In this document: positions 15,270 to 58,370 of the stretch, one piece after another
Layout of the letters: the number at the start of each line of letters is the position of its first letter
Numbering within the stretch: the stretch's first letter is position 1
Assembly: GCA_000091205.1 (NCBI GenBank)
Contig: AP006489.2
Source: Cyanidioschyzon merolae
Lineage: Eukaryota
Length of the DNA: 64,000 bases
Strand: one strand, 5' to 3'
The notes under the pieces: model-generated
Seen by the model: only the letters and a program-made list of their open reading frames with translations
Told to the model about the DNA's origin: nothing
The model's database searches: none
Translations under genes and position numbers: made by a program

Positions 15270-18073
<2,804 letters not shown>

Positions 18074-18340
18074 ACAAGCTTGAAACGGATGCGCTCCCAT
18101 TTATCGAGAGCGCACGAGACTGGACGGATGTGTGGTACGCCCGCCTGCCTGCGATTGCGGGTATGAAAAGAGAGATGCCTTTCGGGCAAACCATTGGACT
18201 GGCCTCGGATCAGCATCAGCGTCGAGACGGTACTGACTTGTGAGTTTGAAAGAAGGGCTGACGCTGCAGGAACGCGAAGGTAAAGCTGAATCTGCGAGGT
18301 TGCAGCGGGTTCATGCATGTTCATCTACACCAGTGACAGA

Positions 18341-19703
18341 TTCAAATGGGACGCTAAACGGCTCACTCTGTTCCTGTCTGTCGATTTCTTCGGAATTCAT
18401 TCCTGATTCGTACAGCAGTCTCGACGTGAGAAGCGCGACAATAACGGCTGGCGGATTCATGCCGAATCCAGGAATGCTCCATCGACTTGTCAAGCTGGCG
18501 CGGTGGGTGCTCTCTCTCTCTCTCTCTCCGATCGAATACGTTCTATCGTCAGAGCAGAGATCACTCGCAACGCCCTCGAACACACACTCATACAATAACC
18601 GGTATTCGGATGCAATGCATAGGCGCCCAGGCAGCCACGCTTCTCCTGTACGCACACATAGCATACCCAGAGCAGGCGTGCTTCAAGTCTCCCGTCGTTC
18701 CGGTTCGAGGCAACTCGTGTACACGCGAACGACCAACGCTGGCACGACAAGACGAAACGCTTGACGTCACCGCTTGACGACCTGTTCACAAGCTCGTGCC
18801 CGACGGTCGCTGAACTCGTCACGGCACACGACTGAGTCGCTTCGGAACGCAAGTGCTGCTCGCTGGGTGGCCACGGACGTCACGGCACTCGACAGCGGCA
18901 CGCTGTCTGTGAGGGGATATGCGGCCAGAGGCTTCCGTCTCTGGTGTTGCCGTGCAAAAGCGTCTCGGACTCGGACTGGAGTCATCGCGGTGATCGCTTC
19001 GAGTGGAGAACGCGTCACCGTTTTGCGCCAAAAGCGAACGTAGACGCTTCAGGAGTTCTGGACGTGTTCGCCAGCGCGAGTATTGCCTGCAGCACCTGGT
19101 TCATCGTGGAAACCTGCGTCTCCGTTCCAGAAATCCTCTACGGAACGGAGACGCATGTACCTGCTCGTGTGCAACGGACACGGCACTCGACGAAGCGATC
19201 ACCCGGAAGAAGCGCGTGACAGTAGCGTGCCTCACTAGTCGGAGAAGCGGCGGATGCATCGACGGTAACCTTCGTCGCCCGTCCAGGGCGTGGACCTGGC
19301 GCTGAAGCGAGCGTTCACGAGACACAGGGTAGCGCTCTTAGGAGGGCGTGTGATGCTGGCGGTGCAGCGGTGCAGTGGTGCAGCGGTGCAGCGGTGCATA
19401 TCTGGGTACACCCGGTCATAGCTTAGAGTGATCGCTGCGACCAGCGTACCGCGGCCGTATACGAGGAAGACGAGCGTAGCCATCCGAGTGCAGGTCGCAA
19501 GACAGGTGATCACTTTTCCAGTTGCTGACGGCTGCTCTGAAGACGACAGATAGACCTGTGTACTTCGAGCCGGAAACACACAGTTAGAGAATGAAGCAGT
19601 CCAAGGAAAAGACCCCAGAGGCTTCCGTAGATGATGCAACTGTAAACAGGTCGAAACATTTGTGCATCCACACGTGTTGGAGCACCCGTTTCCTTCCAGT
19701 CTG
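18341..19703 (+). mobile_element. Interspersed element family A, copy 1 (~1.36 kb, non-coding, non-autonomous; class unknown)
   Basis: Near-identical over its full length to the copies at 23605-24967 and 28150-29523. It begins ttcaaatgggacgctaaacggctcac and ends ggagcacccgtt(t/c)ccttccagtctg. It contains a (CT)n run, an 8-bp minisatellite (gcagcggt/gcagtggt x4-5) and the conserved core at about 18880-19025. No long ORF with recognisable homology. Confidence 0.65.
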
Positions 19704-20262
19704 AAACAAGCATAGGAACACGATACAGTCTGTTCCATACCCGGGGTGCTTTCGTCCAGGTTGTGCGTTTACTCGGGAAATGTCGCATCTTGGACTCCGG
19801 GGACTGCACAGTGTTCAGCTGAGGCTCCTGCAAGTAACCTCAAACGATCAGCAACCTCATGCGAAGGCGTTCGAAAGGTCGTATCGACATCGAACGCCGC
19901 CTCCAAAGCGTTCCACAACAAGTACCCTCACGGCTATCGAGAATCCCAGTATCGAAATCGAGCGAAAGATACTTAGCTCTGGAGCTACGTCCGTCTCACA
20001 GGTCCCAGAATCGCCGCATGAAGCAAGCATATTCATCAACATGGGTAACGGTTCCCGGTGGGGTTACGAGCCGGCTCCTTTGCTTGGGGCGGCGAACTTC
20101 AAGCTCGGAAAACGCAGTCGTATGACAAGCACGCACGCAAGCACCATTTTCATTCCAAATGCACCGCTACCGCTCCAGTGCCGCCCTGATAACGAGCGCG
20201 TACACATCAGGCTCAACAACTGTGACGACGACAGCGGCAGTAGAAACGCCAGACGCGAACCT

Positions 20263-22296: not shown

Positions 22297-23604
22297 GAAC
22301 GCACTGAATCACCACAGCTTTCAGTGGATTCACGTTCAACACGCTGGACAGTGCAGGAACGCTCTGCCCCAATGACATCGCTTCGAATCAATGTGGGGAC
22401 GGGTTCGCGGATACTTGCATTCTCGGTCGATGACAGAAGCGGTATGCAACCTGTGGCACTTCTCTACCTATGCTCTGATGGTTCATGTTCGGCATAGATA
22501 GGTATGGTTGGTGAGGTTATCCCAGGGATTCGAGCTTGCCGCAAATCGGCTGGTGATATCTCGTATTCTGCGAGGCCGATTTTTTGCGGCTCTTGCTGTT
22601 GACACCACCACCACCGTCCGAGTAGCTGCTGTTGCGAACATCTCGGTCTGTGGAAGCACCTGGCTGGGGTAAACGTGAAAAGGCCACGGAATCGTCTAAA
22701 AGGATTTTGTAGACGGAACTTGAACACATATCTGAAACGTGTTTGCCAAGCGAACCTGTGCCCTTGACGTGATGCTGAACCAAGTGCGTACATCGCACGG
22801 TACCTGGCCGGTTTTCAGCATCGATCGATTCTTGTACCCCGAAAAAGGGAGTACGCGTCCGTGCACAAGGCATCAACGTTTAGAGAGCATCTGCATAGAC
22901 CGCAGCTTAACCCCTTCAACCGAGTCGTTCGCCTCGTTCGGATTCCAGGTACGACTCCTGCCGTGTTGACTGTCGAAAACATTCCATGATCGCTTGCTTA
23001 TCAGTACCGCATGTGGCATTACCAATGCAGGTACCTGTTCCGTGAGCCTAATCGTCTACAATCGCACGAGGCACAAGTTTGGTGCCTTGTTTTATATCCG
23101 ATTATCCGGAATGTTGAGCGGTATTGCATGCTCTAGCGCTGGCGAGCATGGACAACGACGATAGACAGAATACCTCGCTGGAATCGGTTATGGAGTGTAC
23201 GCTTTCCTCGCGACGCATAGCGCTCAGATGTCGTGGTGAGGCATACGCTGCGGAGTGTGGTCCCATGCAGACTGCCGGTTAGGATCGGCGTAAACGACGC
23301 ATTTTCGATCCAGTCTCGAAGAAAGGAAGACATTCAGATGATCCGTCGTGGAAACGGGTGCATTTCTGTTTCTTATCAGTCTTTCGAAGCTTTTCGATTG
23401 TACCGTTAGAGATCGCAACGATAGAGGCTACCTCTCACCGGATTGTGAACGGATGTGCGGCATCGACACCACAGGCACAGCTGTTATGCTCGTCTATACA
23501 ATCGCTACGTATCCCAGTTCCAGTCGCAGAACTGCTCCGTTCCCAGCAGAGAGCGATCCATGCTCCGCTCTGATGGTGTTCCAGTGCTCTGAAGCACTGT
23601 AAGA

Positions 23605-24967
23605 TTCAAATGGGACGCTAAACGGCTCACTCTGTTCCTGTCTGTCGATTTCTTCGGAGTTCATTCCTGATTCGTACTGCAGTCTCGACGTGAGAAGCGC
23701 GACAATAACGGCTGGCGGATTCATGCCGAATCCAGGAATGCTCCATCGACTTGTCAAGCTGGCGCGGTGGGTGCTCTCTCTCTCTCTCTCTCCGATCGAA
23801 TACGTTCTATCGTCAGAGCAGAGATCACTCGCTACGCCCTCGAACACACACTCATACAATAACCGATATTCGGATGCAATGCATAGGCGCCCAGGCAGCC
23901 ACGCTTCTCCTGTACGCACACGTAGCATACCCAGAGCAGGTGTGCTTCAAGTCTCCCGTCGTTCCGGTTCGAGGCAACTCGTGTACACGCGAACGACCAA
24001 CGCTGGCACGACAAGACGAAACGCTTGACGTCACCGCTTGACGACCTGTTCACAAGCTCGTGCCCGACGGTCGCTGAACTCGTCACCGCACACGACTGAG
24101 TCGCTTCGGAACGCAAGTGCTGCTCGCTGGGTGGCCACGGACGTCACGGCACTCGACAGCGGCACGCTGTCTGTCAGGGGATATGCGGCCAGAGGCTTCC
24201 GTCTCTGGTGTTGCCGTGCAAAAGCGTCTCGGACTCGGACTGGAGTCATCGCGGTGATCGCTTCGAGTGGAGAACGCGTCACCGTTTTGTGCCAAAAGCG
24301 AACGTAGACGCTTCAGGAGTTCTGGACGTGTTCGCCAGCGCGAGTATTGCCTGCAGCACCTGGTTCATCGTGGAAACCTGCGTCTCCGTTCCAGAAATCC
24401 TCTACGGAACGGAGACGCATGTACCTGCTCGTGTGCAACGGACACGGCACTCGACGAAGCGATCACCCGGAAGAAGCGCGTGACAGTAGCGTGCCTCACT
24501 AGTCGGAGAAGCGGCGGGTGCATCGACGGTAACCTTCGTCGCCCGTCCAGGGCGTGGACCTGGCGCTGAAGCGAGCGTTCACGAGACACAGGGCAGCGCT
24601 CTTAGGAGGGCGTGTGATGCTGGCGGTGCAGCGGTGCAGTGGTGCAGCGGTGCAGCGGTGCACAACTGGGTACACCCGGTCATAGCCTAGAGTGATCGCT
24701 GCGACCAGCGTACCGCGGCCGTATACGAGGAAGACGAGCGTAGCCATCCGAGTGCAGGTCGCAAGACAGGTGATCACTTTTCCAGTTGCTGACGGCTGCT
24801 CTGAAGACGACAGATAGACCTGCGTACTTCGAGCTGGAAACACACAGTTAGAGAATGAAGCAGTCCAAGGAAAAGACCCCAGAGGCTTCCGTAGATGATG
24901 CAACTGTAAACAGGTCGAAACATTTGTGCATCCACACGTGTTGGAGCACCCGTTCCCTTCCAGTCTG
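23605..24967 (+). mobile_element. Interspersed element family A, copy 2
   Basis: Collinear and almost identical (only a handful of substitutions by eye) to 18341-19703, in the same orientation. It carries the same (CT)n run, minisatellite and core module (about 24145-24290). Confidence 0.65.
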
Positions 24968-25430
24968 GAATTCATGAATACCTTATCTGATCTATATGTA
25001 GAGGTCGCGAGACCCGTCCGAACCCCAACATACGCATATGCGTTTTTTCCTGCACGTTGACGTGTCCATGGGCAGCGCCACTGCCGAAGACATACACGCT
25101 CATGAAACGTGGTATCTGGAGCGGCATCGATGTGATTTCGTAACACTCTACGACATTGCTGCTGACATCGACGCGAGCACAGGGGCATACGCGCTCATCC
25201 GCATCCGACCGTGGAGCCATTTCTGTCATGTGTACCAGATTCAAGAAAAGCCAATTCAAAGCAACCACTTGAAACATAGGGAATTCGTCGTCGTCACTCA
25301 CTTTTGCGTACTTGATCCCTTATTTAACCTGGTTCCCATTGACAATTTGTATGCTTTATGAACCAAAACAGGTCGCGTACGAAAACGAATCTGGCGCGAC
25401 CTTGTTCGAATCGTTTTGGCTTGTACTTGA

Positions 25431-28149: not shown

Positions 28150-29523
28150 ATGTATCGGGTTCAAACGGGACGCTAAACGGCTCACTCTGTTCCTGTCTGT
28201 CGATTTCTTCGGAGTTCATTCCTGATTCGTACTGCAGTCTCGACGTGAGAAGCGCGACAATAACGGCTGGCGGATTCATGCCGAATCCAGGAATGCTCCA
28301 TCGACTTGTCAAGCTGGCGCGGTGGGTGCGCTCTCTCTCTCTCTCTCCGATCGAATACGTTCTATCGTCAGAGCAGAGATCACTCGCTACGCCCTCGAAC
28401 ACACACTCATACAATAACCGATATTCGGATGCAATGCATAGGCGCCCAGGCAGCCACGCTTCTCCTGTACGCACACGTAGCATACCCAGAGCAGGCGTGC
28501 TTCAAGTCTCCCGTCGTTCCGGTTCGAGGCAACTCGTGTACACGCGAACGACCAACGCTGGCACGACAAGACGAAACGCTTGACGTCACCGCTTGACGAC
28601 CTGTTCACAAGCTCGTGCCCGACGGTCGCTGAACTCGTCACGGCACACGACTGAGTCGCTTCGGAACGCAAGTGCTGCTCGCTGGGTGGCCACGGACGTC
28701 ACGGCACTCGACAGCGGCACGCTGTCTGTCAGGGGATATGCGGCCAGAGGCTTCCGTCCCTGGTGTTGCCGTGCAAAAGCGTCTCGGACTCGGACTGGAG
28801 TCATCGCGGTGATCGCTTCGAGTGGAGAACGCGTCACCGTTTTGTGCCAAAAGCGAACGTAGACGCTTCAGGAGTTCTGGACGTGTTCGCCAGCGCGAGT
28901 ATTGCCTGCAGCACCTGGTTCATCGTGGAAACCTGCGTCTCCGTTCCAGAAATCCTCTACGGAACGGAGACGCATGTGCCTGCTCGTGTGCAACGGACAC
29001 GGCACTCGACGAAGCGATCACCCGGAAGAAGCGCGTGACAGTGGCGTGCCTCACTAGTCGGAGAAGCGGCGGGTGCATCGACGGTAACCTTCGTCGCCCG
29101 TCCAGGGCGTGGACCTGGCGCTGAAGCGAGCGTTCACGAGACACAGGGTAGCGCTCTTGGGAGGGCGTGTGATGCTGGCGGTGCAGCGGTGCAGTGGTGC
29201 AGCGGTGCAGCGGTGCATATCTGGGTACACCCGGTCATAGCCTAGAGTGATCGCTGCGACCAGCGTACCGCGACCGTATACGAGGAAGACGAGCGTAGCC
29301 ATCCGAGTGCAGGTCGCAAGACAGGTGATCACTTTTTCCAGTTGCTGACGGCTGCTCTGAAGACGACAGATAGACCTGCGTACTTCGAGCCGGAAACACA
29401 CAGTTAGAGAATGAAGCAGTCCAAGGAAAAGACCCCAGAGGCTTCCGTAGATGATGCAACTGTAAACAGGTCGAAACATTTGTGGATCCACACGTGTTGG
29501 CGCACCCGTTCCCTTCCAGTCTG
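28150..29523 (+). mobile_element. Interspersed element family A, copy 3
   Basis: Same sequence, orientation and internal landmarks as copies 1 and 2. The first bases differ slightly (ttcaaacggga versus ttcaaatggga). The core module lies at about 28700-28845. Confidence 0.65.
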
Positions 29524-30033: not shown

Positions 30034-30558
30034 CTACACCCGCTTGCGCTCGGTGTTGTGTTGTTTGATAGCTGCCCTGTTCGCAAGTTTGAGTAAACGT
30101 TGTAGCTGCTCTGATCCAAGCAGTCGCACGGCTTCCTGGAGGCCCCGTTCTGATCGTAAACTTTCGAAGCGTTCTTGTAGAACCCGCAGCGGTACGTTCT
30201 TTTCTTCAGAGAGCAGTGTCCATAGCCATTCAGGGTAGGCGGATAACGGCTGCTTTGGCGGTCCTGTTTCGCCCTTGACAATATTAAGCGCGCTCCAGGT
30301 AGTCTCCGTGGCTTCTGACGCCAGCTGGTCTGTGCTTGTTGCGTCGGGAGCTGGACTCGGCTTTTCCGCTCGGTCTGGAGCCTGCTTTCGCGTTTTGGTT
30401 GCAACCCCGCGCCGCACAAGGAACTGGAACCGCTGCCTCAAGGCCCGTACGACGTCTAGCCCTTGCATTCCGTATCCGACGACACCTTCTGACGCAAATA
30501 GAAAAGAAGTTTGGCACCAATGAACGGCAACTACTGCTTTAACAGCGCGCAGCGTCAA
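30034..30558 (-). CDS. Mitochondrial ribosomal protein L54 (mL54)-like small protein
   Basis: 174-aa ORF whose C-terminal half AYPEWLWTLLSEEKNVPLRVLQE...QLQRLLKLANRAAIKQHNTERKR resembles the mL54 signature (YPEWLFEMNLGPPKTLEEL...[21 protein letters not shown]). The N-terminus is basic and presequence-like. The true start could be an internal Met. Confidence 0.5.
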   Translation of the reverse strand: MTLRAVKAVVAVHWCQTSFLFASEGVVGYGMQGLDVVRALRQRFQFLVRRGVATKTRKQAPDRAEKPSPAPDATSTDQLASEATETTWSALNIVKGETGPPKQPLSAYPEWLWTLLSEEKNVPLRVLQERFESLRSERGLQEAVRLLGSEQLQRLLKLANRAAIKQHNTERKRV

Positions 30559-31350
30559 GAGCGGTACAATCGACTGAAGAGCATGCGCTTAGGCCATTCG
30601 AACGCTCGTTCACGCGCTCTGCATGAAGCGAACACCGCATGCCGCTCCGGTCGACAAGGCGCTCACAGTGTCGAAACGAGTCCTGACACACACATTGCAC
30701 CTGTTGCTTTATGTCGTGGCTCACGTCATGCCTGGCAGTAGAGACCAGCGAGCACTGGAAAAGTCAGACCGCATCGCATCTGCTCTTCCGCGTATAAGCT
30801 GTCTTGTGGAACGAAATTGTGGACGAAAAATGCCAGAGGTATGTGGACTGCTGGCAGCCCTGCTTGACAACCACCTAGGAACAGTTGCTTGACGACATGC
30901 GTCGAGGTGAGCGTTGCTAGGCAAGACCTGCTCGAGTGCGAAGCATCGCGATCCCTCACGACATCCTATATATTATGATTACTTGGTAGCGAACAATGCT
31001 TCTACTGAACCGTGAGCGTCTACATCGCATTTGACAAGATGAAAGACGTATTTAACTGGACAAAATCAGGGAGAATCGGCTTGCCCGATGAGCGCCTGAG
31101 CACCAATCGCAGCGGTGCACGATTTGATCGCTTTCGAGTCGTGGAAAGCGGTTTGGTCCGAGGGCCGAATCGCGGCCCCTTGAATGAGATGCCATGACGC
31201 GCTTCAACCCTGATTGCGTTCATGAACGATGCTATCGCTTTGGCGGTTTGGATGCAACCACGCAACTGAATCACCGCTAGGTCTGATGTCGTCGGAACGT
31301 TCGCTTGACTCCTCTTTTCGAATAGCGAGTTGCACTTTGTTGCTTGTTCA

Positions 31351-31878
31351 TAGACAGGTCTAGCATTTTGTTGGAGTGATCGCTTACGGAATGAGCCGAG
31401 TACTTGTCCCCACTGAAATATTATGATTTAGAAACTCGTAGACAGGTCTAGCATTTTGTTGGAGTGATCGCTTACGGAATGAGCCGAGTACTTGTCCCAA
31501 CTGAAATATTATGATTTAGAAACTCGTAGACAGGTCTAGCATTTTGTTGGAGTGATCGCTTACGGAATGAGCCGAGTACTTGTCCCCACTGAAATATTAT
31601 GATTTAGAAACTCGTAGACAGGTCTAGCATTTTGTTGGAGTGATCGCTTACGGAATGAGCCGAGTACTTGTCCCAACTGAAATAATATGATTTAGAAACT
31701 CGTAGACAGGTCTAGCATTTTGTTGGAGTGATCGCTTACGGAATGAGCCGAGTACTTGTCCCAACTGAAATAATATGATTTAGAAACTCGTAGACAGGTC
31801 TAGCATTTTGTTGGAGTGATCGCTTACGGAATGAGCCGAGTACTTGTCCCAATTGGAATATTATGATTTATAAACGGA
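31351..31878. repeat. Tandem satellite of six 88-bp units (tagacaggtctagcattttgttggagtgatcgcttacggaatgagccgagtacttgtccc[c/a]actgaaata[t/a]tatgatttagaaactcg)
   Basis: The tagacaggtc motif recurs at 31351, 31439, 31527, 31615, 31703 and 31791, an exact 88-bp period. Units are head-to-tail with no spacers. The last unit degenerates (aattggaatattatgatttataaacgg). Confidence 0.9.
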
Positions 31879-34874
31879 CAAATTGGATCACCTGTTGATC
31901 GACACGCAGCGGGCTCCCGGTGAAGCACTCGCTTACGCTTACCCATCCGTATCTCTTCGTTGCCGGTCGTATGAACGGTACGGATTCTTCACAGGCTGTT
32001 CCCTCTTTGATAATAGCTCCTAGAGATAGTATGGAGTGAAATGATTTGACAAGGAGGCTATCATTTATACTGAGTTTCATACGTGCCGTTTGAGGTGCAC
32101 GACGTTCCAAACACCGACAACGAGAAGGATGGTGCATCCATATGCTGACCATACAGGGACAACCTTGAACGGATAAGGTCTTGTTTCGCTGCCTAGCAGC
32201 GACGGCTTCAAGTCTGGTCGGGGTACTTCTCCAGTCTACGGATTATATTCCTTTTGTCGAACGTCTTCATGAAAAACGAAAAAAAAACACAAAAAGTAGC
32301 GCTGGTACATGCGGTACAGAATGAGGTGCTCTGCGTACAAGGCGGTGCAGACCTGACGGTTCTCGTGGATGGTCTTTTTTTGGTTCCTTTTCGTTGGCAG
32401 GCAACCCTTCGGTGCGCTTCGATGCAAAAAGAACTTTTCCGATTCACGAAACCGACGGCTCAAATGCCGATGACGCTTCACGTGATGCCGGTGCTGGACA
32501 GGTTCTCTCCTCAATACGTGGCTGCCTGGCTCCTGTACGTTCATGCGTTGGACAGCGAGCGGAACTTTATGGTGAGTAGAGCATCACTAGCATCAGCTGG
32601 TGCCATTGCTCGCGCGCATCCTATGATGACTTCCGGTAGGTCTGTCTCTAGTACTGAACGCTCGACCAACAGACTCTCTTGTGGTAAGCACTGCGCTGAC
32701 ACCTCCATCGAGCCGTCATGTTCACTGACGTAAAAAATTCTGGCACGTGCGGAACCACGAGTCGAAGACGATGCCGTTATCCATGAGTGCGGTTCTTGTC
32801 GCCGCTAAAGCGCGAGTATCTCTTCGTGCTTGTGATGCCACATCCTCATGCAGTCAGTTTACGTGCGAGTCTCGCGATGGAGACACATCTGGACGTGCGG
32901 CTCGAGTCACTGCCCTCCGTTTATCGACGACGAGGATGCAGGGGAACGCCATCTGGAGCTCCACGCCCGACGGCGATAAGCGTAGGAGGATTCGAGTGTA
33001 GCACTTGTGACCAGGCAGCTTCACGCGTTGCGCACTTTGTCGTCCATGCTCATCTGCTCGGGGCGTTATCTTGCGCAGCGTAGAGGTCTCCACTGTACAC
33101 ATGTGGCGCCCCGCAGCGCGGTCCTGCAAAGAATCACATGAACAACGCTTTTGCGTACGCATCGCCTTGAGCAAAAGCGCTATTCCACAAATGAATGCCC
33201 TTAGCGTAAACGGAAATCCACCAAGGTAGCAAAAGCCTCTACGGCAATGCGTCTCCAGAGCGTGCGTTCCTGGCGATGCCTAGGCTTCGGCAGTGCCAGC
33301 ATTGCCTCTGAGGTCCAGCGACACCTGTCACCGCGTGGATCCCTCTCCCACTATCTGTAGATGCGGTCCTGCGGAAACAAAAGCAAACTGATCCGGCTCT
33401 AGTATGAAGCCAGCGCAACAGCGAGGCATCCATCAGCGAGCTCGAGTGCACCACGGATATGAACATGGATAAAATGCGACATTCGACGCAGTTTTGGTCT
33501 GCTCAAGTGTCGACACCTCAAACCAATATCTAGATGGGCGCCCGAACACCATTACCAGCCGTACCCCGCAAAGCGCCTCCCCAGGCCTGCGGTTTGCGGA
33601 TGACTCGCGTCGCAGCAAGCAGCTCTGGCAGGCCCGCCACCCAAACAGTCGCTGAGACTAGTTTCCAGGCATCAAAGAACGATTGTTCTGGGGATTCAGG
33701 TACAAAGAAGGCGTATCTTAAGGAACTTGGGTCTCTTTCCTGCTCCTCCATGGCACCCTCGCATAAAAGAGAACCGCGGTTCAATGCATGTATCTTATTC
33801 TATTTCCCAGCACGAGGGCTGCGCGCGCTTTTACGGGACGTCGAATCGTTCACATGAGCCAGAGGATCCCAAATAGCACGATGGTTATCCCAATTGATGT
33901 GCGCTTCCATTACGGAGCGCCCTACCTTCAGGTGCAGCTCCACGAGCACGATCGACCAATTCTTGCGGAGAGCACGCTGCTTCCGTACGAAGCTCACGGT
34001 ACCAAGCGACTGGTAGGAGCGCTCGCTATGAAACCGCACGAACACAGCGCATTTCTGCCATATAGTTTACTACGGACAAGAGCGCAAGAACCACGTGTAC
34101 ACGCACTCATAGTTCACTAGAACCGCCCCAGTGGGGCCACTTGAAACACACAGGCACCACTGTAGAACTTTTCCGTCGAGTACCTCAACGCGCTGCGTAC
34201 TGACGGGTGAACCACCGGCTTTCCGACACAGCATCGTTTCGAGGATGCACAAAGACGCTTTCCGGCGGTGACGGCGCTACTCAGTCAGTCAGTCTGTCTG
34301 TCTGTCAGTCAGTCAGTCTGTCTGCCACGAACCCGAGTATCAATGCCTGCACCTCGACAGTGCAACCTAGGTCGGCGTCAGCATCTGCTGCTACCGCTGG
34401 TGTATACTTGTGTGCGTGTGTGTGTGTGCAGTTATTGATGCTTGCCCGCGCTAGCCTAGACTTCTATAAAGCAGAACATCACTTTGCATGTGCAGTCGCA
34501 GTTCAAGTATCTGACGCTGAGAGCGGAGCGCCGTACAAACCGCGCGCCGCTCTGTGTTTTCGAAACGACGGCGAGTCACTTTCGATGCTGAGGGCCTGAA
34601 AGCTGCAGCTGCTTCGGGTCTGTTTCGGGAACCGACGCAACGGGTTGTAGGTGTTTCGCTCTGGACTGTCGGGAGGTTTTGCTACCTCAAGGACCTGGGC
34701 GTGGCAGGCGTGATAAGCAGAGCGCTTACCCTTACGCATTGCGTAGTCGCTCTAAAAAACTTGGGGTGTGCTCCAGGTCGAGATTTGTGAACTTGCCGTT
34801 CAAACCAAAGCCGTCAGAATAGCGTGTGGACAGGAAAGCAATACAACGCGACTAGTACCACCACCTAACAAGAG

Positions 34875-37286
34875 ATGAAGGAAGCCTCTCGTTCTAGAGG
34901 GTGCCAGGTGCGGCTTCGAATAGCGTCGCACCTGACATGCACCCGGGTGTACCCCGAGCTTCAGTGGGTACAGCCGCATGTGCTTTTCTCCGGTCGTCAG
35001 GCAGTTTCCCGCAAAGCCAAGGTAGTCAACATTGCGAAGGCGTGGTCGCGAGCCCCCCACAGAATATATGCTGCCTGCCGTCGGAGAAGCGTTGCCAATC
35101 TAGTCTACTGCTGCGCCACCAAGGGACACCAAGAGCACTCCGAAGCACCACCGAGCGATGACGCTTTGAGGGAATATGAAGCGGTGACCAGCACGCCGGA
35201 ACACGACACCAACGATGCCGTCCGCCGGGAGCTGGCGGAAAATCGTTTCAAAGCTGTTCGTGAACGCGTTGCTACGTTAGAGCAGAAACTACAGCACGGC
35301 GAGGCCATTCGCCGCGTTTTGCTAGCAGAGCAGCTGCTGAAAGCGCTACGAAATCCGGAACTCTACGCAAAACTAGAAGCGGTGGGCCGCAGGCATGCCG
35401 CTGAACAGGAAACGCCTTCCAGTGCCAGCTCGGATTCCAAAGCAACCGCTTCTGCAGCTATGAGCTCCGCTGTTGCTGGGGCAGCTGCTACGGAGCTTGA
35501 GCAACCAACAGATGTCGATGCTGGGCGCACTCCTTCTGTCGCAGCCTCTGACGAGAGGATCATGGCACTTGCCCGGATCATTCAGCAAACACAGGGCCTT
35601 CTCGAAGCACTGAGCCAGTGGAAACACTTGCCAGATAGCGTTTTGGCGAAGGCGAAGGAGTTTCGCAAAGAGCTCGGACAAGTTCTCCTTGAGACTGACC
35701 TTGAAACGGTACTAACCACGGGAGGTTCCGTTTCGAGTGCTGGCACCCCAAGCTCTGAAACCAGTTCTCCTGCCGCGAGAGATTTCTTCAACCGCGCAGT
35801 ACGGGCGCTGCGAGGGCGCTCGAGCGGCAAGCCGGCCGTTACAGACGAAGAGCTGGAGAGTATCCTCTCGGCCGCTGCACAAATGCGACGGACAAGTGCG
35901 CTCAAGGCAGAGATGGATCGCATCGTCACTGCCGAAGCCGCAGCTGCGATGGTGGAGGCCCAACGAGCTCGCGACGAAAAGAGCGCTAAGAACACGGGCG
36001 CAACGTACACTCAAGCTTCAGCCCGTCATGCGCAGCATCTCCTAGAGCGCTGTCGTTTGAAGGGACACGAGCTCAGGAGCTGGCTGAAGCATTTTGTTTC
36101 CGACACCTGGCAACGTCTGAATGGTGTCCCGAGCCCGTCACAGGGTTCCAGTGAAATGAGCGAGACTGCGATTGCACCAGCCCCTGTCATGCCGTTCCGC
36201 CAACGCCAAGCGCTGATCTTTAAGCACACTCTGGAAGATCTGAAACCTCTCGAACGAAAACTGCAGGAATTGAGCAAAGAACGCGAAATGCGTCTGCGAC
36301 GCGAGGGCCCTCTCGGCAAGCTGATCCATATTCGCGACCTGCGCGCACTAGACGACCAAGTGAACGCACTTCGTCGACAAATCAGCGTCCGAGTTCTCGA
36401 GAGCGAGATGGAACGCATTTATCTCTATCTCGATGCAGAGCTCGACGCCTCGACTTTGTTTTTCTCGCGGCCTATCAACGACGAACAGGAGGAGATGCTG
36501 CTCATCGCCGAATACGGGTTGCTGGCTCGGCGTCTAGCGGAAATCCAAGTCCTCGTGGATGTCGGTGAGGCGGTGCTCATCGAAGACGACGAGCTTGCCG
36601 ATCTGGCCTCTGACATCCAGTTTCTCAAGTCTCGCCTGGGCATCGGAGAAGACGATGCGTACATGAACCTGGGCTCTGTGGTACTCGATTGGTCGCGAAT
36701 TCGTCAGTATCTGGCGGAGATGTCCCAAAAAGCCAAGGAGGGTGGAGAATTCTACTGGCGAGGCGTTCGCCTTCTCGGAGGTGACATCATGTACAGCCTT
36801 CGACTGATTCAACGAGCAGCCGCAGGTTACACGTTAACACCGCGCGAAGTCCGCACCATTAGGCGAACAGGTCGCGATATCTTGACACTGGTCCCGTTTG
36901 GCATTTTATTGGCACTGCCGCTGACTCCCGTCGGCCATGTCATGGTGTTCTCGTTCATTCAGCGATATTTCCCGAGTTTCTTCCCGAGCACGTTCACGGA
37001 TAAGCGCCAGGAGCTCATGAGACGTTACGAAAGCCTCATGCAGCAAATTTCGAGCCTCGAAAAAGACTCTGCAACCGAGGAGGCTGAGAAAGTCTCGCTA
37101 TTGGCTCGCGCTGCGCCCGAGGAGACACACCTCGCCAGTGACGATGATGATAACGACATCGACGCCGGCACCAGTTACGTCGACAACGAAATCGACATCG
37201 ACAAGCGCAGTAGCGCGTTGGGAAACAGCGCTGGCGAACGTTTGGCAAGTCGCCGCTCGCGAGGCGTCGAGTTTCCGCGCAAGTGA
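34875..37286 (+). CDS. LETM1-domain protein with a long N-terminal coiled-coil region (plant/algal LETM1-like architecture)
   Basis: 803-aa ORF. The C-terminal block LTPREVRTIRRTGRDILTLVPFGILLALPLTPVGHVMVFSFIQRYFPSFFPSTF aligns with the LETM1 core (LTRRERRQF...[35 protein letters not shown]). The preceding ~550 aa are coiled-coil or low complexity (E/A/R/L-rich) and the tail is acidic. Confidence 0.7.
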   Translation: MKEASRSRGCQVRLRIASHLTCTRVYPELQWVQPHVLFSGRQAVSRKAKVVNIAKAWSRAPHRIYAACRRRSVANLVYCCATKGHQEHSEAPPSDDALREYEAVTSTPEHDTNDAVRRELAENRFKAVRERVATLEQKLQHGEAIRRVLLAEQLLKALRNPELYAKLEAVGRRHAAEQETPSSASSDSKATASAAMSSAVAGAAATELEQPTDVDAGRTPSVAASDERIMALARIIQQTQGLLEALSQWKHLPDSVLAKAKEFRKELGQVLLETDLETVLTTGGSVSSAGTPSSETSSPAARDFFNRAVRALRGRSSGKPAVTDEELESILSAAAQMRRTSALKAEMDRIVTAEAAAAMVEAQRARDEKSAKNTGATYTQASARHAQHLLERCRLKGHELRSWLKHFVSDTWQRLNGVPSPSQGSSEMSETAIAPAPVMPFRQRQALIFKHTLEDLKPLERKLQELSKEREMRLRREGPLGKLIHIRDLRALDDQVNALRRQISVRVLESEMERIYLYLDAELDASTLFFSRPINDEQEEMLLIAEYGLLARRLAEIQVLVDVGEAVLIEDDELADLASDIQFLKSRLGIGEDDAYMNLGSVVLDWSRIRQYLAEMSQKAKEGGEFYWRGVRLLGGDIMYSLRLIQRAAAGYTLTPREVRTIRRTGRDILTLVPFGILLALPLTPVGHVMVFSFIQRYFPSFFPSTFTDKRQELMRRYESLMQQISSLEKDSATEEAEKVSLLARAAPEETHLASDDDDNDIDAGTSYVDNEIDIDKRSSALGNSAGERLASRRSRGVEFPRK

Positions 37287-38374: not shown

Positions 38375-39728
38375 TGTCAAACTAAAATGCGTAACTGACC
38401 TGGTCGCTCTACTCATGTCTTGTGATTATGTTTCCGAACGTTTCATGGGTGTTTAGCCTCGGCATTCGATTTGCAGTCGCAAGGGATGCCGCTTTCATGC
38501 GTCGTTCTAGGATCCGCGGTCGTCGTTTCGGAGTGAGATTCTCGATGCTTTGCTGCTGGAATTCGGAACGATTCCAGAGTGAGGATGAGTCGCGAGGCAG
38601 TGGAACACGACTACGCAACACACGCGATACCATTGTGGTATTCGTATGTACCGGCAACCAGGCTACTCCTTTGCTTGTGTGCGTCGCATGCGCAGATCAC
38701 ACACAGGATTCATGTCTTCTATCGTTCTGTGTTCAGGCATTACGCGGACGAAGCAGTATGCGCTGTTGGATTGGCGAGCAAAAACACTCCATGTCGGGCG
38801 CTGAAACCTCGTTGACGAGTTCATGGCGAATGCTCACTGAACTTGTCCCGTCAACACATCGATCTCATTCGAAACACACACGTCCTACGCTCTGTGTATG
38901 GAGCCATCGACGACACAGCATTCGACAGCAGCATGACACCGGTCACGGGATATGCTCCCAGACGCTGTTGTCTCTTCCGTTTCGATCGAAAAAGGGTCCT
39001 GGAGTCGGAATGCTATGATCACAGCGATCGCTTTCTGCGGAGAATGCTTCGCGACTGAGAAAGAAGCGCGCGTTGCCGGATCGAAGGTTCTCGACTTGAT
39101 CTCGAGCCTCGGTTTCCCTCTCGGTACTTGTTTCATTTCAGAGAGCAACGCTCAGCACAAATCCGCTTGTAGAAAATCGAAAAACAAGCGTTCACGCGCC
39201 TAGAGAGCAGCGTACGAGGTCAAGGCATTGCCCCGAAGAAGCCAGCGGTATCAGGGAACTGCAGTGGGCACGTCAACTGAGGAGCGCATCGCGAGGAGCC
39301 TTCTGTACCCGTCAAGGGCATGGGCTGAGCGATACGGTGAGCGTTCACGCTCTGCAGAGTGGCGCTGCCACCAGGCGGAAATTTGCCGGAGACATGCATT
39401 CGAGTGCCTGACCAAAGTCAAGTGTCGCCGCTGCGAAGCGCGCACCGAGGCTGTTTCCGACAAGTACGAAACCGAGAAGCGAAGCGTGATTCGCGACTTG
39501 AGCCTGTGGACATCGTGCGTCGACACCAGCCGAAGCCCGTGATACCCGGACTTGGAAGCTGTTGTTGTTGTTGTTGTCGTCGTCGTCATGCAGTGACTAC
39601 TGAAAACAGAGCTGGCGAGACGAACACGATCCGCGTACGTAAACGCCGGAAATAAAAGAGGGAATATGCGGCAGTTGCAGACATAGCTTTCAACAACCGG
39701 TATTCATGAGAATGAAGAGAGACCCGAC
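38375..39728 (+). mobile_element. Interspersed element family B, copy 1 (~1.35 kb, non-coding)
   Basis: Collinear and highly similar to 55822-57170. It starts tgtcaaactaaaatgcgtaactgacc and ends ...gagaatgaagagagaccc. It contains a (GTT)n/(GTC)n run near 39555-39581 and the conserved core at about 38915-39045. The length and core position are similar to family A. Confidence 0.65.
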
Positions 39729-41330: not shown

Positions 41331-41664
41331 CGAGTGCTAAAGAAGCAGGCACCTACGAACAAGGCACACGAAAGAAGACCAGCAATCCACGCTGTTCGCG
41401 CATCGCGCAATGGATGGCGTACAACAGCGCGCTGCAGCGCCCTGCGTGTCCATGCGACGTGCGACGTGCGTCGTACGTCGTGCGTGTGCGTGTGCGTGTG
41501 CGTGTGTTCGAATCGGCGCACTGGACGCGCCTTGCCGCGCAGACGCATCGCAGGTGCCATGCGTGGCGCTGTTTTCGGCGGCAGGCGATCGAATTCGCGA
41601 TGCCACAGGTATCCCAGTGCGGATCGTAGCTGCATTGTATAGAGGCTATGCATTTCTATTCGTT

Positions 41665-42590
41665 ACTGGACAGCGCAAAATGGACTGCATGAATGCCTCA
41701 GGTCAGTCATAGCACAGTGCGCAGATGGCTGAGGAACACTGAAAGACAGCAAGCGAGAACTGTATGCGCTCTGCGCCAAGAACTGGTATTGTGAAAGGCT
41801 CTAGTGGTCTATGGTAGAAAAACGAACTGTTGATTATCTTCCATGGAAGGCAAAATCGAAGATTGTAGTTACCACGGGCGTCTCTGCTTCTCAACAGCTC
41901 ATTCATTTGGTCCTGCAAGCACTGAGATACAGTTGCAGAAAAAGAGTACCGGTTGAAGCATGGTGGTTTTTCACGGAAATCGCACAGAGAGGCTTCCTGG
42001 AAATTGGGAATCTGTATGAAGCAGAGGAACGTCGGTTTGTTTTTCCAGTTAATGATACTGTGTTCGGATGAAACAGTCGTAGCGTCTATGCGTATTCGTG
42101 GAGCATGGATCCCGTCGTAGGTATGCACGATCGAACTCGAAGAGAACGGGGACATCATCATCGGTTCTAGGTGCAGTGGATTCATTTTTGGCGGCCTCAG
42201 CTTTGGCTCCTAGAGAAGGTTCGCGCATCAGCACAAACCACTTTGTCGAATTATCGAAGAATTTTGCCCTGACGTCTGAGAATGTCCCTCTGTTGCACAT
42301 CGTGCCACTTCACTCTTTCCCTTGCGTTTGGGCTTTTCCCGATTCTATCGGGGAGTAGAGCTGCTTTTCATTCCTTCATACTGAGCGTGATTGAATCCCG
42401 TTGAGGGAGTCGTTTCTATCGTGAATTGTGCGGATCGCTGCACTGGGTGGATCGCCGTAGCTCTGAACATGTGCTAACATACCGCGGCACGTTAGCTCTG
42501 TCTTCCACAAGTCCTTCTCGCTCTGGAAAAGTGCTCACCTATGGGCATGAATGAGTGCATTCATTTGAAGAAATAAATAATCTGAGGGAT
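41665..42590 (+). repeat. Interspersed repeat family C, copy 1 (~0.9 kb, diverged)
   Basis: Roughly 65-70% identical by eye to 57455-58370 along its length. Shared blocks include gcactgagatacagttgcagaaaaag / gcactgaaaacactgggatagagtcgcagaaaaag, gtatgcacgatcgaactcgaagag / gtatgtacaatcgaactccaagag, cccgattctatcggggagtagagctgcttttc / gtcgattctatctgggtagagctgcttttc and atgggcatgaatgagtgcattcatttgaagaaataaataatc / agggcatgaacaagtgcgttcattttgaagaaataaaaaatc. Confidence 0.55.
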
Positions 42591-55821: not shown

Positions 55822-57170
55822 TGTCAAACTAAAATGCGTAACTGACCTGGTCGCTCTACTCATGTCTTGTGATTATGTTTCCGAACGTTTCATGGGTGTT
55901 TAGCCTCGGCATTCGATTTGCAGTCGCAAGGGATGCCGCTTTCATGCGTCGTTCTAGGATCCGCGGTCGTCGTTTCGGAGTGAGATTCTCGATGCTTTGC
56001 TGCTGGAATTCGGAACGATTCCAGAGTGAAGATGAGTCGCGAGGCAGTGGAACACGACTACGCAACACACGCGATACCATTGTGGTATTCGTATGTACCG
56101 GCAACCAGGCTACTCCTTTGCTTGTGTGCGTCGCATGCGCAGATCACACACAGGATTCATGTCTTCTATCGTTCTGTGTTCAGGCATTACGCGGACGAAG
56201 CAGTATGCGCTGTTGGATTGGCGAGCAAAAACACTCCATGTCGGGCGCTGAAACCTCGTTGACGAGTTCATGGCGAATGCTCACTGAACTTGTCCCGTCA
56301 ACACATCGATCTCATTCGAAACACACAAGTCCTACGCCCTGTGTATGGAGCCATCGACGACACAGCATTCGACAGCAGCATGACACCGGTCACGGGATAT
56401 GCTCCCAGACGCTGTTGTCTCTTCCGTTTCGATCGAAAAAGGGTCCTGGAGTCGGAATGCTATGATCACAGCGATCGCTTTCTGCGGAGAATGCTTCGCG
56501 ACTGAGAAAGAAGCGCGCGTTGCCGGATCGAAGGTTCTCGACTTGATCTCGAGCCTCGGTTTCCCTCTCGGTACTTGTTTCATCTCCGAGAGCAACGCTC
56601 AGCACAAAGCCGCTTGTAGAAAATCGAAAAACAAGCGTTCACGCGCCTAGAGAGCAGCGTACGAGGTCAAGGCATTGCCCCGAAGAAGCCAGCGGTATCA
56701 GGGAACTGCAGTGGGCACGTCAACTGAGGAGCGCATCGCGAGGAGCCTTCTGTACCCGTCAAGGGCATGGGCTGAGCGATACGGTGAGCGTTCACGCTCT
56801 GCAGAGTGGCGCTGCCACCAGGCGGAAATTTGCCGGAGACATGCATTCGAGTGCCTGACCAAAGTCAAGTGTCGCCGCTGCGAAGCGCGCACCGAGGCTG
56901 TTTCCGACAAGTACGAAACCGAAAAGCGAAGCGTGATTCGCGACTTGAGCCTGTGGACATCGTGCGTCGACACCAGCCGAAGCCCGTGATACCCGGACTT
57001 GGAAGCTGTTGTTGTTGTTGTCGTCGTCGTCATGCAGTGACTACTGGAAACAGAGCTGGCGAGACGAACACGATCCGCGTACGTAAACGCCGGAAATAAA
57101 AGAGGGAATATGCGGCAGTTGCAGACATAGCTTTCAACAACCGGTATTCATGAGAATGAAAAGAGACCCA
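55822..57170 (+). mobile_element. Interspersed element family B, copy 2
   Basis: Collinear with 38375-39728 (a few substitutions and small indels by eye), same orientation. The core module lies at about 56360-56490. Confidence 0.65.
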
Positions 57171-57454
57171 AACTTTAGGCTGTACACCCGTGTTCGAGTA
57201 CCTGCTCCATGATATCACGAGATACGTGTATTCTCTACATCGAAGAAGGCACACAACGGTTTACGAGCCATGAAGCATGAAACGAGATCGTGCGTTCGGC
57301 GGAATCGTACATATTGCTTTAGTCTTTCAACGCAACGATATTGCATATCCGAATCATGTCATCGAATGCTTTTTCGCGGAGTATATCAAGAGATCGAAAT
57401 CACGATGCAATGCACCATACAGATCGTAGACGAATTACCAATAAAACATATGCG

Positions 57455-58370
57455 TTACAGAACAGTGCAACGAGGACTGCATCCCTCCTTCTGTTCAGTT
57501 ATACCACAGGACGCAGATGAGAGAAGAACACAGAAAGAAACAAGTATATTTGCTCCGGCCCCAAAACTGGTATTCTTAACGTGTGCTTGCTGTAAATGGT
57601 AGAGAACAAGCAGTTGAGCACCTTTTACGGAAGGCAAAAGCAACGACACTAGCTACCACCGGCGCCTCTGTTTCTCTACAGCTTGTTCGTGTGGCACTGA
57701 AAACACTGGGATAGAGTCGCAGAAAAAGGGTGCTAGTTCATGAATGGCCATTTTCCATAGGAACCACGACTACAGCGTTCCTGGAACGTCGCAATTGGTA
57801 TTAGGGACCGAAAAGGCGACCTGTTTTCATCAGTAGATGACACTTGCTTCGGCCGAAACGGTCGCAGCGGCTATGGGTATTTGCGGAGCACGGAGCCCGT
57901 GGTATGTACAATCGAACTCCAAGAGGACTAAGACATCATTATCTGTTCGACCTGCATTGGATACATTTGGCGGCATCAGTTTCCCCCGTAGAGAAAGCTC
58001 ATACTACAGCACCAACCACTGTGTCGAATTATTGAAGACCTTTTCTCCTGAATGTCTCTTGACGCCCTTGTATTGAACGTTGCATTTCAACGTTCCGCTT
58101 GCGTTCGAGCTTTTGTCGATTCTATCTGGGTAGAGCTGCTTTTCGATCCTCCGTGCTTAGCGTGTTTCAACCCCATCGAACGAGTCTTTCGTATCCTGAT
58201 ACGTAATGATCGCTCCACTGGACGAAGCATCGAAGCTTTGAACACGCGGTGACATTCCGGGACACCTGTCGTCTTTCTTGTACAAGTGCTCCTCTCGCAG
58301 GGAACGCCCTCACATGAGGGCATGAACAAGTGCGTTCATTTTGAAGAAATAAAAAATCCAAGGGAAAGGT
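57455..58370 (+). repeat. Interspersed repeat family C, copy 2 (diverged), lying about 285 bp downstream of family B copy 2
   Basis: See family C copy 1. Similarity begins near acagtgcaacgaggactgcat (versus acagcgcaaaatggactgcat upstream of copy 1) and ends after the ttgaagaaataaaaaatc block. Confidence 0.55.

Follow-up and report, generated by a model that had tools for sequence, protein, structure and literature searches.

A 64,000-nucleotide stretch of nuclear chromosome 7 of Cyanidioschyzon merolae (contig AP006489.2, hereafter the window) contains, at positions 31351-31878, six 88-bp units arranged head-to-tail. We consider it highly probable that this array is a neutral, non-coding, single-locus minisatellite (VNTR) in the spacer between the gene for the mitochondrial ribosomal protein mL54 and a LETM1-like gene. 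The array is real, but as a feature it is ordinary, adding one so far undescribed member to a well-known class. A search of the literature for C. merolae minisatellites returned nothing specific.

TRF reported the repeat at 31351-31875, with a period of 88, 6.0 copies, 98% matches, 0% indels and a score of 1001. The distance from repeat start to repeat start was exactly 88 bp in a gap-free repeat search, and a 22-mer taken from the unit occurred six times in the window, in 88-bp steps, against none expected in shuffles. These results agree with one another and with an earlier sequence-only reading of the window, which had described an 88-bp head-to-tail array of six copies. According to TRF and the alignment of the units, the individual copies occupy positions 31351-31438, 31439-31526, 31527-31614, 31615-31702, 31703-31790 and 31791-31878, and the consensus of the unit is TAGACAGGTCTAGCATTTTGTTGGAGTGATCGCTTACGGAATGAGCCGAGTACTTGTCCCAACTGAAATATTATGATTTAGAAACTCG. 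Both the tandem head-to-tail organization and the unit length, which lies within roughly 10-100 bp, are those of a minisatellite.

The units are similar, but not identical. In the unit alignment, position 61 reads C-A-C-A-A-A in units 1 to 6, and a T71A change is common to units 4 and 5. The greatest divergence is found in unit 6, which carries six changes on the 3' side (C63T, A66G, G81T, and GGA in place of CG+T as the last three bases). Written as unit types, the array of the window reads 1-2-1-3-3-4. Two alternating variants had been noticed previously and taken as the signature of higher-order or unequal-crossover homogenization. The alternation is present in units 1-4, but not in units 5-6. 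A higher-order repeat, for example a 176-bp block, is unsupported, because the C/A alternation at position 61 ends after unit 4 and TRF sees a period of 88 alone, without any period of 176 bp. Turnover of the unequal-crossover type is supported by the mosaic structure of the alleles, which is described below.

Public metagenome and read-archive assemblies with C. merolae-like haplotypes, which share about 99% identity with the window, served as the comparison set. All contigs that span the locus have the same flanks, and the length of the array is in every case an exact multiple of 88 bp, corresponding to 2, 3, 4, 5 or 6 units. Two units are present in L040, three in L013/L027/L038, L037, L023/L039 and L025/L041, four in L017/L026/L047 and L058, five in L050, and six in L018/L048 as well as in the window; the copy numbers of the contigs are taken from short-read assemblies and are minimum estimates, because identical adjacent units (such as the 3-3 pair in the window) collapse in short-read assembly. 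As in a VNTR, the number of units differs between independent assemblies at one locus. According to the sequence-only reading, a unit absent elsewhere in the genome and invariant in copy number would be a trivial local duplication. The first half of this description applies in the data searched, but the second does not, since copy number varies.

The order of the variants is polymorphic as well. Among the 39 units, 15 sequence types could be distinguished, which form related mosaics with an allele-specific order, again as expected for a VNTR. Next to the map of the window given above, the maps are 12-1-2-4 for L058, 11-1-3-4 for L017, 12-3-4 for L023, 15-4 for L040, 5-6-7-8-9-4 for L018, 5-6-7-8-10 for L050 and 13-7-14 for L013. 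Identical three-unit maps were seen again in independent samples. In every allele, the last unit carries the shared diverged 3' signature T63, G66, T81 and terminal GGA. From these maps we infer that the allele of the window could be derived by joining an L058-like 1-2 to an L017-like 1-3-4, followed by one duplication of unit 3.

The history that fits the evidence best would begin with the duplication, in the C. merolae lineage, of an 88-bp piece of fast-evolving spacer. Replication slippage, unequal exchange between sister chromatids or between alleles, and gene conversion would then have added and removed whole units. Such turnover would keep the inner units alike and let the edge unit drift, and the array sequence would have no specific function. 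The closest parallels are classical minisatellites, such as human MS32/D1S8 with its MVR mapping. The shared features are a unit in the 10-100 bp range, a single-locus head-to-tail array of a few hundred bp, allele differences of whole units, interspersed variants in allele-specific order, and an edge unit that is the most diverged. In contrast to the classical cases, the array is very short (2-6 units) and not GC-rich (42% in a 56% GC genome), and it resides in a mostly haploid host, the sexual cycle of which has only recently been described (PMC13353863).

The array is bordered by unique sequence on both sides. The left flank (31263-31350) is identical among the contigs inspected, and the right flank (31879-31966) is kept among them except for one base in L019. 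A MAFFT alignment gave an appearance of similarity between flanks and unit, which proved no better than in shuffles. With the left flank treated as a degenerate unit, 73 of 500 shuffles aligned to the unit at least as well, and the local alignment of the right flank was likewise not significant (42 of 500 shuffles); neither flank is therefore a degenerate unit. Both flanks are suited to the anchoring of PCR primers. With these unique flanks, at least five length alleles and informative internal maps, the locus has potential as a marker. Combined with two nearby microsatellites (see below), it could provide cheap PCR typing of C. merolae strains and environmental populations, and, the sexual cycle now being known, it could also be used to track crosses. 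The biological importance of the array is small, but it shows that the compact, repeat-poor genome of C. merolae carries fast-turning minisatellites in its spacers.

The array lies within a 4.3-kb divergent spacer, with mL54 (minus strand) on one side and the LETM1-like gene (plus strand) on the other. The mL54 gene (30034-30558, minus strand) was recognized by its match to PF08561 Ribosomal_L37 (E=5.9e-11). The 144-aa form of the protein starts at 30468, which is 883 bp from the array and places the latter in the mL54 upstream region. The 144-aa product was found in many related assemblies, and the gene is kept in the sister species. An exact look-up of the product (30034-30468, minus strand) returned only members from JGI, Logan and ENA; the cluster contains no NCBI or UniRef entry of strain 10D, and so mL54 may be unannotated, or modelled differently, in the 10D reference annotation. 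The LETM1-like gene (34875-37286, plus strand, PF07766) begins about 3 kb from the array, which is thus upstream of this gene also. Its product is XP_005535961/BAM79675 of C. merolae 10D. The translation reads NEIDIDK as in 10D, and at the sole position that separates 10D from the representative of the cluster, the window has the 10D residue. The squalene synthase encoded in the window is likewise identical to that of C. merolae 10D (BAM79676).

In general, the window consists of long intronless ORFs on both strands, among them an NSUN-type methyltransferase, a RIO kinase, a purple acid phosphatase, RPN7, ThiC, an amidase and a GT8/GT64 glycosyltransferase, in addition to the LETM1-like protein and squalene synthase. 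Between mL54 and the LETM1-like gene, no protein gene could be recognized; the six longest ORFs of the spacer were negative in Pfam, and exact look-up of the spacer ORFs in the protein collection gave no match. This confirms the earlier description of a gene-poor stretch holding only mL54 and a copy of a repeated element, A3 (28160-29523). The two simple repeats mentioned in that description, at about 34280-34325 and 34413-34430, were also recovered by TRF, as a (TCAG/TCTG)n repeat at 34281-34322 and a (TG)n microsatellite at 34409-34428, which is (TG)10 in the window. Both are located 2.4-2.5 kb from the array, upstream of the LETM1-like gene. Among the C. merolae-like contigs, the segment between fixed anchors measures 56, 60 or 64 bp for the former and 27, 29 or 31 bp for the latter. 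Both microsatellites are thus length-polymorphic, which shows that slippage and turnover are routine in this spacer.

A metagenome contig, L052 (JGI 3300050748), shows a different arrangement, in which mL54 is preceded, at a distance of 51 bp, by a gene for ribosomal protein L23. Positions 1-766 of the contig are joined to position 30508 of the window; the match to the window begins only there, about 40 bp upstream of the mL54 ATG. The assembly may be chimeric at this junction, the contig may derive from a transcript, or the locus may really be rearranged in one population.

In the sister species, whose coding regions are about 74% identical in nucleotide sequence, the gene order amidase-GT64-mL54-LETM1-SQS-RPB1 is retained, but the mL54/LETM1 spacer is shorter, at only about 2 kb. 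We did not find a copy of the unit in the sister species by blastn, by tblastx, or with an nhmmer profile built from all unit types; a single-copy ancestor in that species was thereby rejected. The absence of the unit from the sister species argues that the array is young and specific to the C. merolae lineage.

Sequence variation was compared between the units and the adjacent unique DNA. The units have 14 segregating sites in 88 positions, compared with 16 in 800 positions (pi 0.85%) of the left flank, a comparison that registers sequence constraint and is blind to functions that depend on length or chromatin. On this comparison, nothing points to purifying selection on the unit sequence, and the neutrality of the array would follow from this apparent lack of sequence constraint.

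An improbable alternative is that the array functions as a length-dependent cis-regulatory or chromatin element, with two to six copies of a factor-binding site and a copy number that tunes expression. The VNTR of the human INS gene, the copy number of which has been proposed to tune expression, provides a model for such a function and is similar to the array in being a length-polymorphic minisatellite upstream of a gene. The position of the array would fit this explanation, as it lies between divergent genes and upstream of both, 883 bp from the start codon of mL54 and 3 kb from the LETM1-like gene. So would the long stretches of the unit that are invariant in all units seen, for example TGATCGCTTACGGAATGAGCCG and TAGCATTTTGTTGGA, but a young homogenized array would show invariant stretches anyway. 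Moreover, the units vary more than the flanks, no motif or symmetry is conspicuous, and the sister species, in which both genes have the same orientation around a much shorter spacer, lacks the element. The analogy to the INS VNTR is weakened in the same way by the lack of conservation of the unit in the sister species, and an effect of length on expression is hypothetical here. The earlier suggestion of a regulatory or nuclease-recognition array was not borne out, because the units are less conserved than the flanks and have no conspicuous structure or motif.

As had been noted before, the array is richer in AT than its surroundings, with a GC content of 0.40-0.42 against 0.56 for the window; a single unit has 42%. 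The GC minima of the window are found here, both over 1 kb (0.438 at 31.3-32.3 kb) and over 2 kb (0.482 at 30.8-32.8 kb), and a second low stretch is present at 57.0-59.0 kb (0.488 over 2 kb). When the array was collapsed in silico to one unit, the local 2-kb value rose from 0.482 to 0.514 and the minimum moved to 57.0-59.0 kb (56.6-58.6 kb in collapsed coordinates). Since collapsing the array removes the minimum, the low GC content is mostly due to amplification of a unit with 42% GC.

The base composition also bears on the candidate reading that the spacer is part of the centromere of chromosome 7, which we regard as very unlikely. C. merolae centromeres are described in bioRxiv 10.1101/096016 and PMC4976089 (citing Kanesaki 2015) as single CENH3-bound regions of 2-3 kb with a GC content of 48.4% versus 55%. 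A gene-poor stretch of about 2 kb with a GC content near 48%, containing the lowest 1-kb and 2-kb values of the window, is reminiscent of this description. In contrast to the described centromeres, however, the low GC content here comes largely from the amplified unit; with the array collapsed, the 2-kb value of 0.514 is no longer the minimum, and alleles with 2-3 units, as they occur in nature, would scarcely be conspicuous in GC. An equally low stretch (57.0-59.0 kb) lies 26 kb away, no more than about 11% of the chromosome is contained in the window, and the same spacer in the sister species has no marked low-GC island. Furthermore, bioRxiv 10.1101/096016 describes these centromeres as having no apparent pattern except low GC. 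Taken together, there is only a slim chance that either the spacer is the CENH3-bound centromere of chromosome 7 or the copy number of the array sets mL54 expression. If the former were true, a C. merolae centromere would carry a strain-variable tandem repeat, although the centromeres of this species are described as having no pattern except low GC.

Returning to the interpretation as a non-coding minisatellite, the array contains no ORF of more than 40 aa in any frame, and the unit length of 88 is not divisible by 3; a coding array was rejected on the lack of such ORFs. Among the tRNA genes of C. merolae are permuted ones (PMC3728597), the two halves of which would become contiguous in a tandem array. 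ARAGORN nevertheless detected no tRNA in the window, arguing against a tRNA or permuted tRNA gene. Rfam searches gave no match at gathering score in the whole window, and none at E<=10 in the regions 30.8-32.4 kb and 27.6-35.0 kb. On neither strand does the unit fold better than its shuffles, with z-scores of -0.47 (plus strand) and +1.20 (minus strand), so that neither the tRNA-like structure nor the hairpin for which the sequence-only reading had proposed to look was found. A 150-nt stretch of the plus strand does fold at z=-3.07, but this value only reflects the pairing of a G-U-rich pseudo-palindrome around GATC with the corresponding copy in the following unit; as DNA, the array contains no inverted repeat. 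By ORF, tRNA, Rfam and folding tests, the array is non-coding and not an RNA gene, as expected for a VNTR.

These results leave hardly any room for the explanation that the units are tandem small RNA genes, for example box C/D-like snoRNAs in rotated phase, with AUGAUUU as C-like box and CUGA as D box, flanked by self-complementary AAUAUU. The elements can be pointed out in the unit. Positions 63-66 read CTGA, positions 73-79 read ATGATTT, and in the tandem context AATATT lies between the two. However, the terminal GA of RUGAUGA is missing from the C-like box, CTGA is replaced by TTGG in several units (types 4, 10, 13 and 14), and AATATT has become AATAAT in units 4-5, which removes the would-be stem. 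Boxes C and D joined by a terminal stem are thus not present. Furthermore, 4 of the 14 variable sites fall into the 18-nt would-be guide, Rfam was negative even at E<=10, and the rotated 95-nt fold had a z-score of only -0.27. A variable copy number and the lack of a homologue in the sister species also speak against snoRNA genes.

The distribution of the unit was followed with the 22-mer, which is invariant in all units seen. It matched 5 metagenome contigs, each colinear with the flanks of the window, and the metagenome scan yielded only one contig per positive sample. There was no match in the viral or prokaryote genome collections, excluding an origin from the genomes collected there, and none elsewhere in the window. 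Descent from the repeated elements A and B (see below) or from other sequence of the window was also rejected, as only chance 9-11-mers were shared. The metagenome contigs strongly suggest that the array occupies a single locus, a conclusion to be read with the tendency of short-read assemblies to lose repeats. Many contigs run only 25-50 nt into the array, or end at the edge of element A3, and the array explains why short-read assemblies of the species break at this position. The breaks could also be caused by a multi-copy repeat, but the idea that the array belongs to a satellite family, dispersed or subtelomeric, with several chromosomal sites of which one is visible here has next to no probability, given that every unit-bearing contig has the flanks of this locus, that each positive metagenome sample contains one contig, and that a tandem array alone suffices to break de Bruijn assemblies.

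Satellite DNA families share with the array the tandem head-to-tail organization, but they occur at several sites or in arrays of kb to Mb. The array spans 0.18-0.53 kb, at most 528 bp, and is present with the flanks of one locus and with no other copies in the data searched. Of the possibilities that the sequence-only reading had listed, a local minisatellite is the one that stands, with 2-6 units at a single locus across haplotypes. A larger satellite family, which had been listed beside it, found no support, since the 22-mer matched this locus alone in the metagenome collection and was absent from the viral and prokaryote collections and the rest of the window.

Apart from the minisatellite, the window contains two types of longer repeats. 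Element A is present in three copies of about 1.37 kb that are 98-99% identical (18338-19706, 23602-24970, and A3 at 28160-29523). The copies are located in separate spacers between unrelated genes, namely ThiC/amidase, amidase/GT64 and GT64/mL54. In each copy, a (CT)n run is accompanied by five GCGGTGCA repeats, and Pfam recognizes no ORF. The sister species contains nothing that matches A3 at the syntenic loci, and the edge of A3 is a point at which short-read contigs break. Element A looks like a dispersed mobile or repetitive element, and it may be related to the 253-copy interspersed element of Nozaki 2007 (PMC1955436). Element A1 is adjoined by a full-length, nuclear-encoded ThiC gene (16052-18073, plus strand; PF01964, E=1e-170) for a radical SAM thiamine pyrimidine synthase.

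Element B is present in two 1.35-kb copies (38375-39725 and 55822-57169), which have an identity of 99.1% and are separated by 17.4 kb. Near the two copies lies another pair of sequences, of about 0.93 kb (41657-42589 and 57449-58365), with an identity of only 70%. No gene separates the second element B from 57449-58365, while the squalene synthase gene is located between the first element B and 41657-42589. Contigs of other strains also end at element B.
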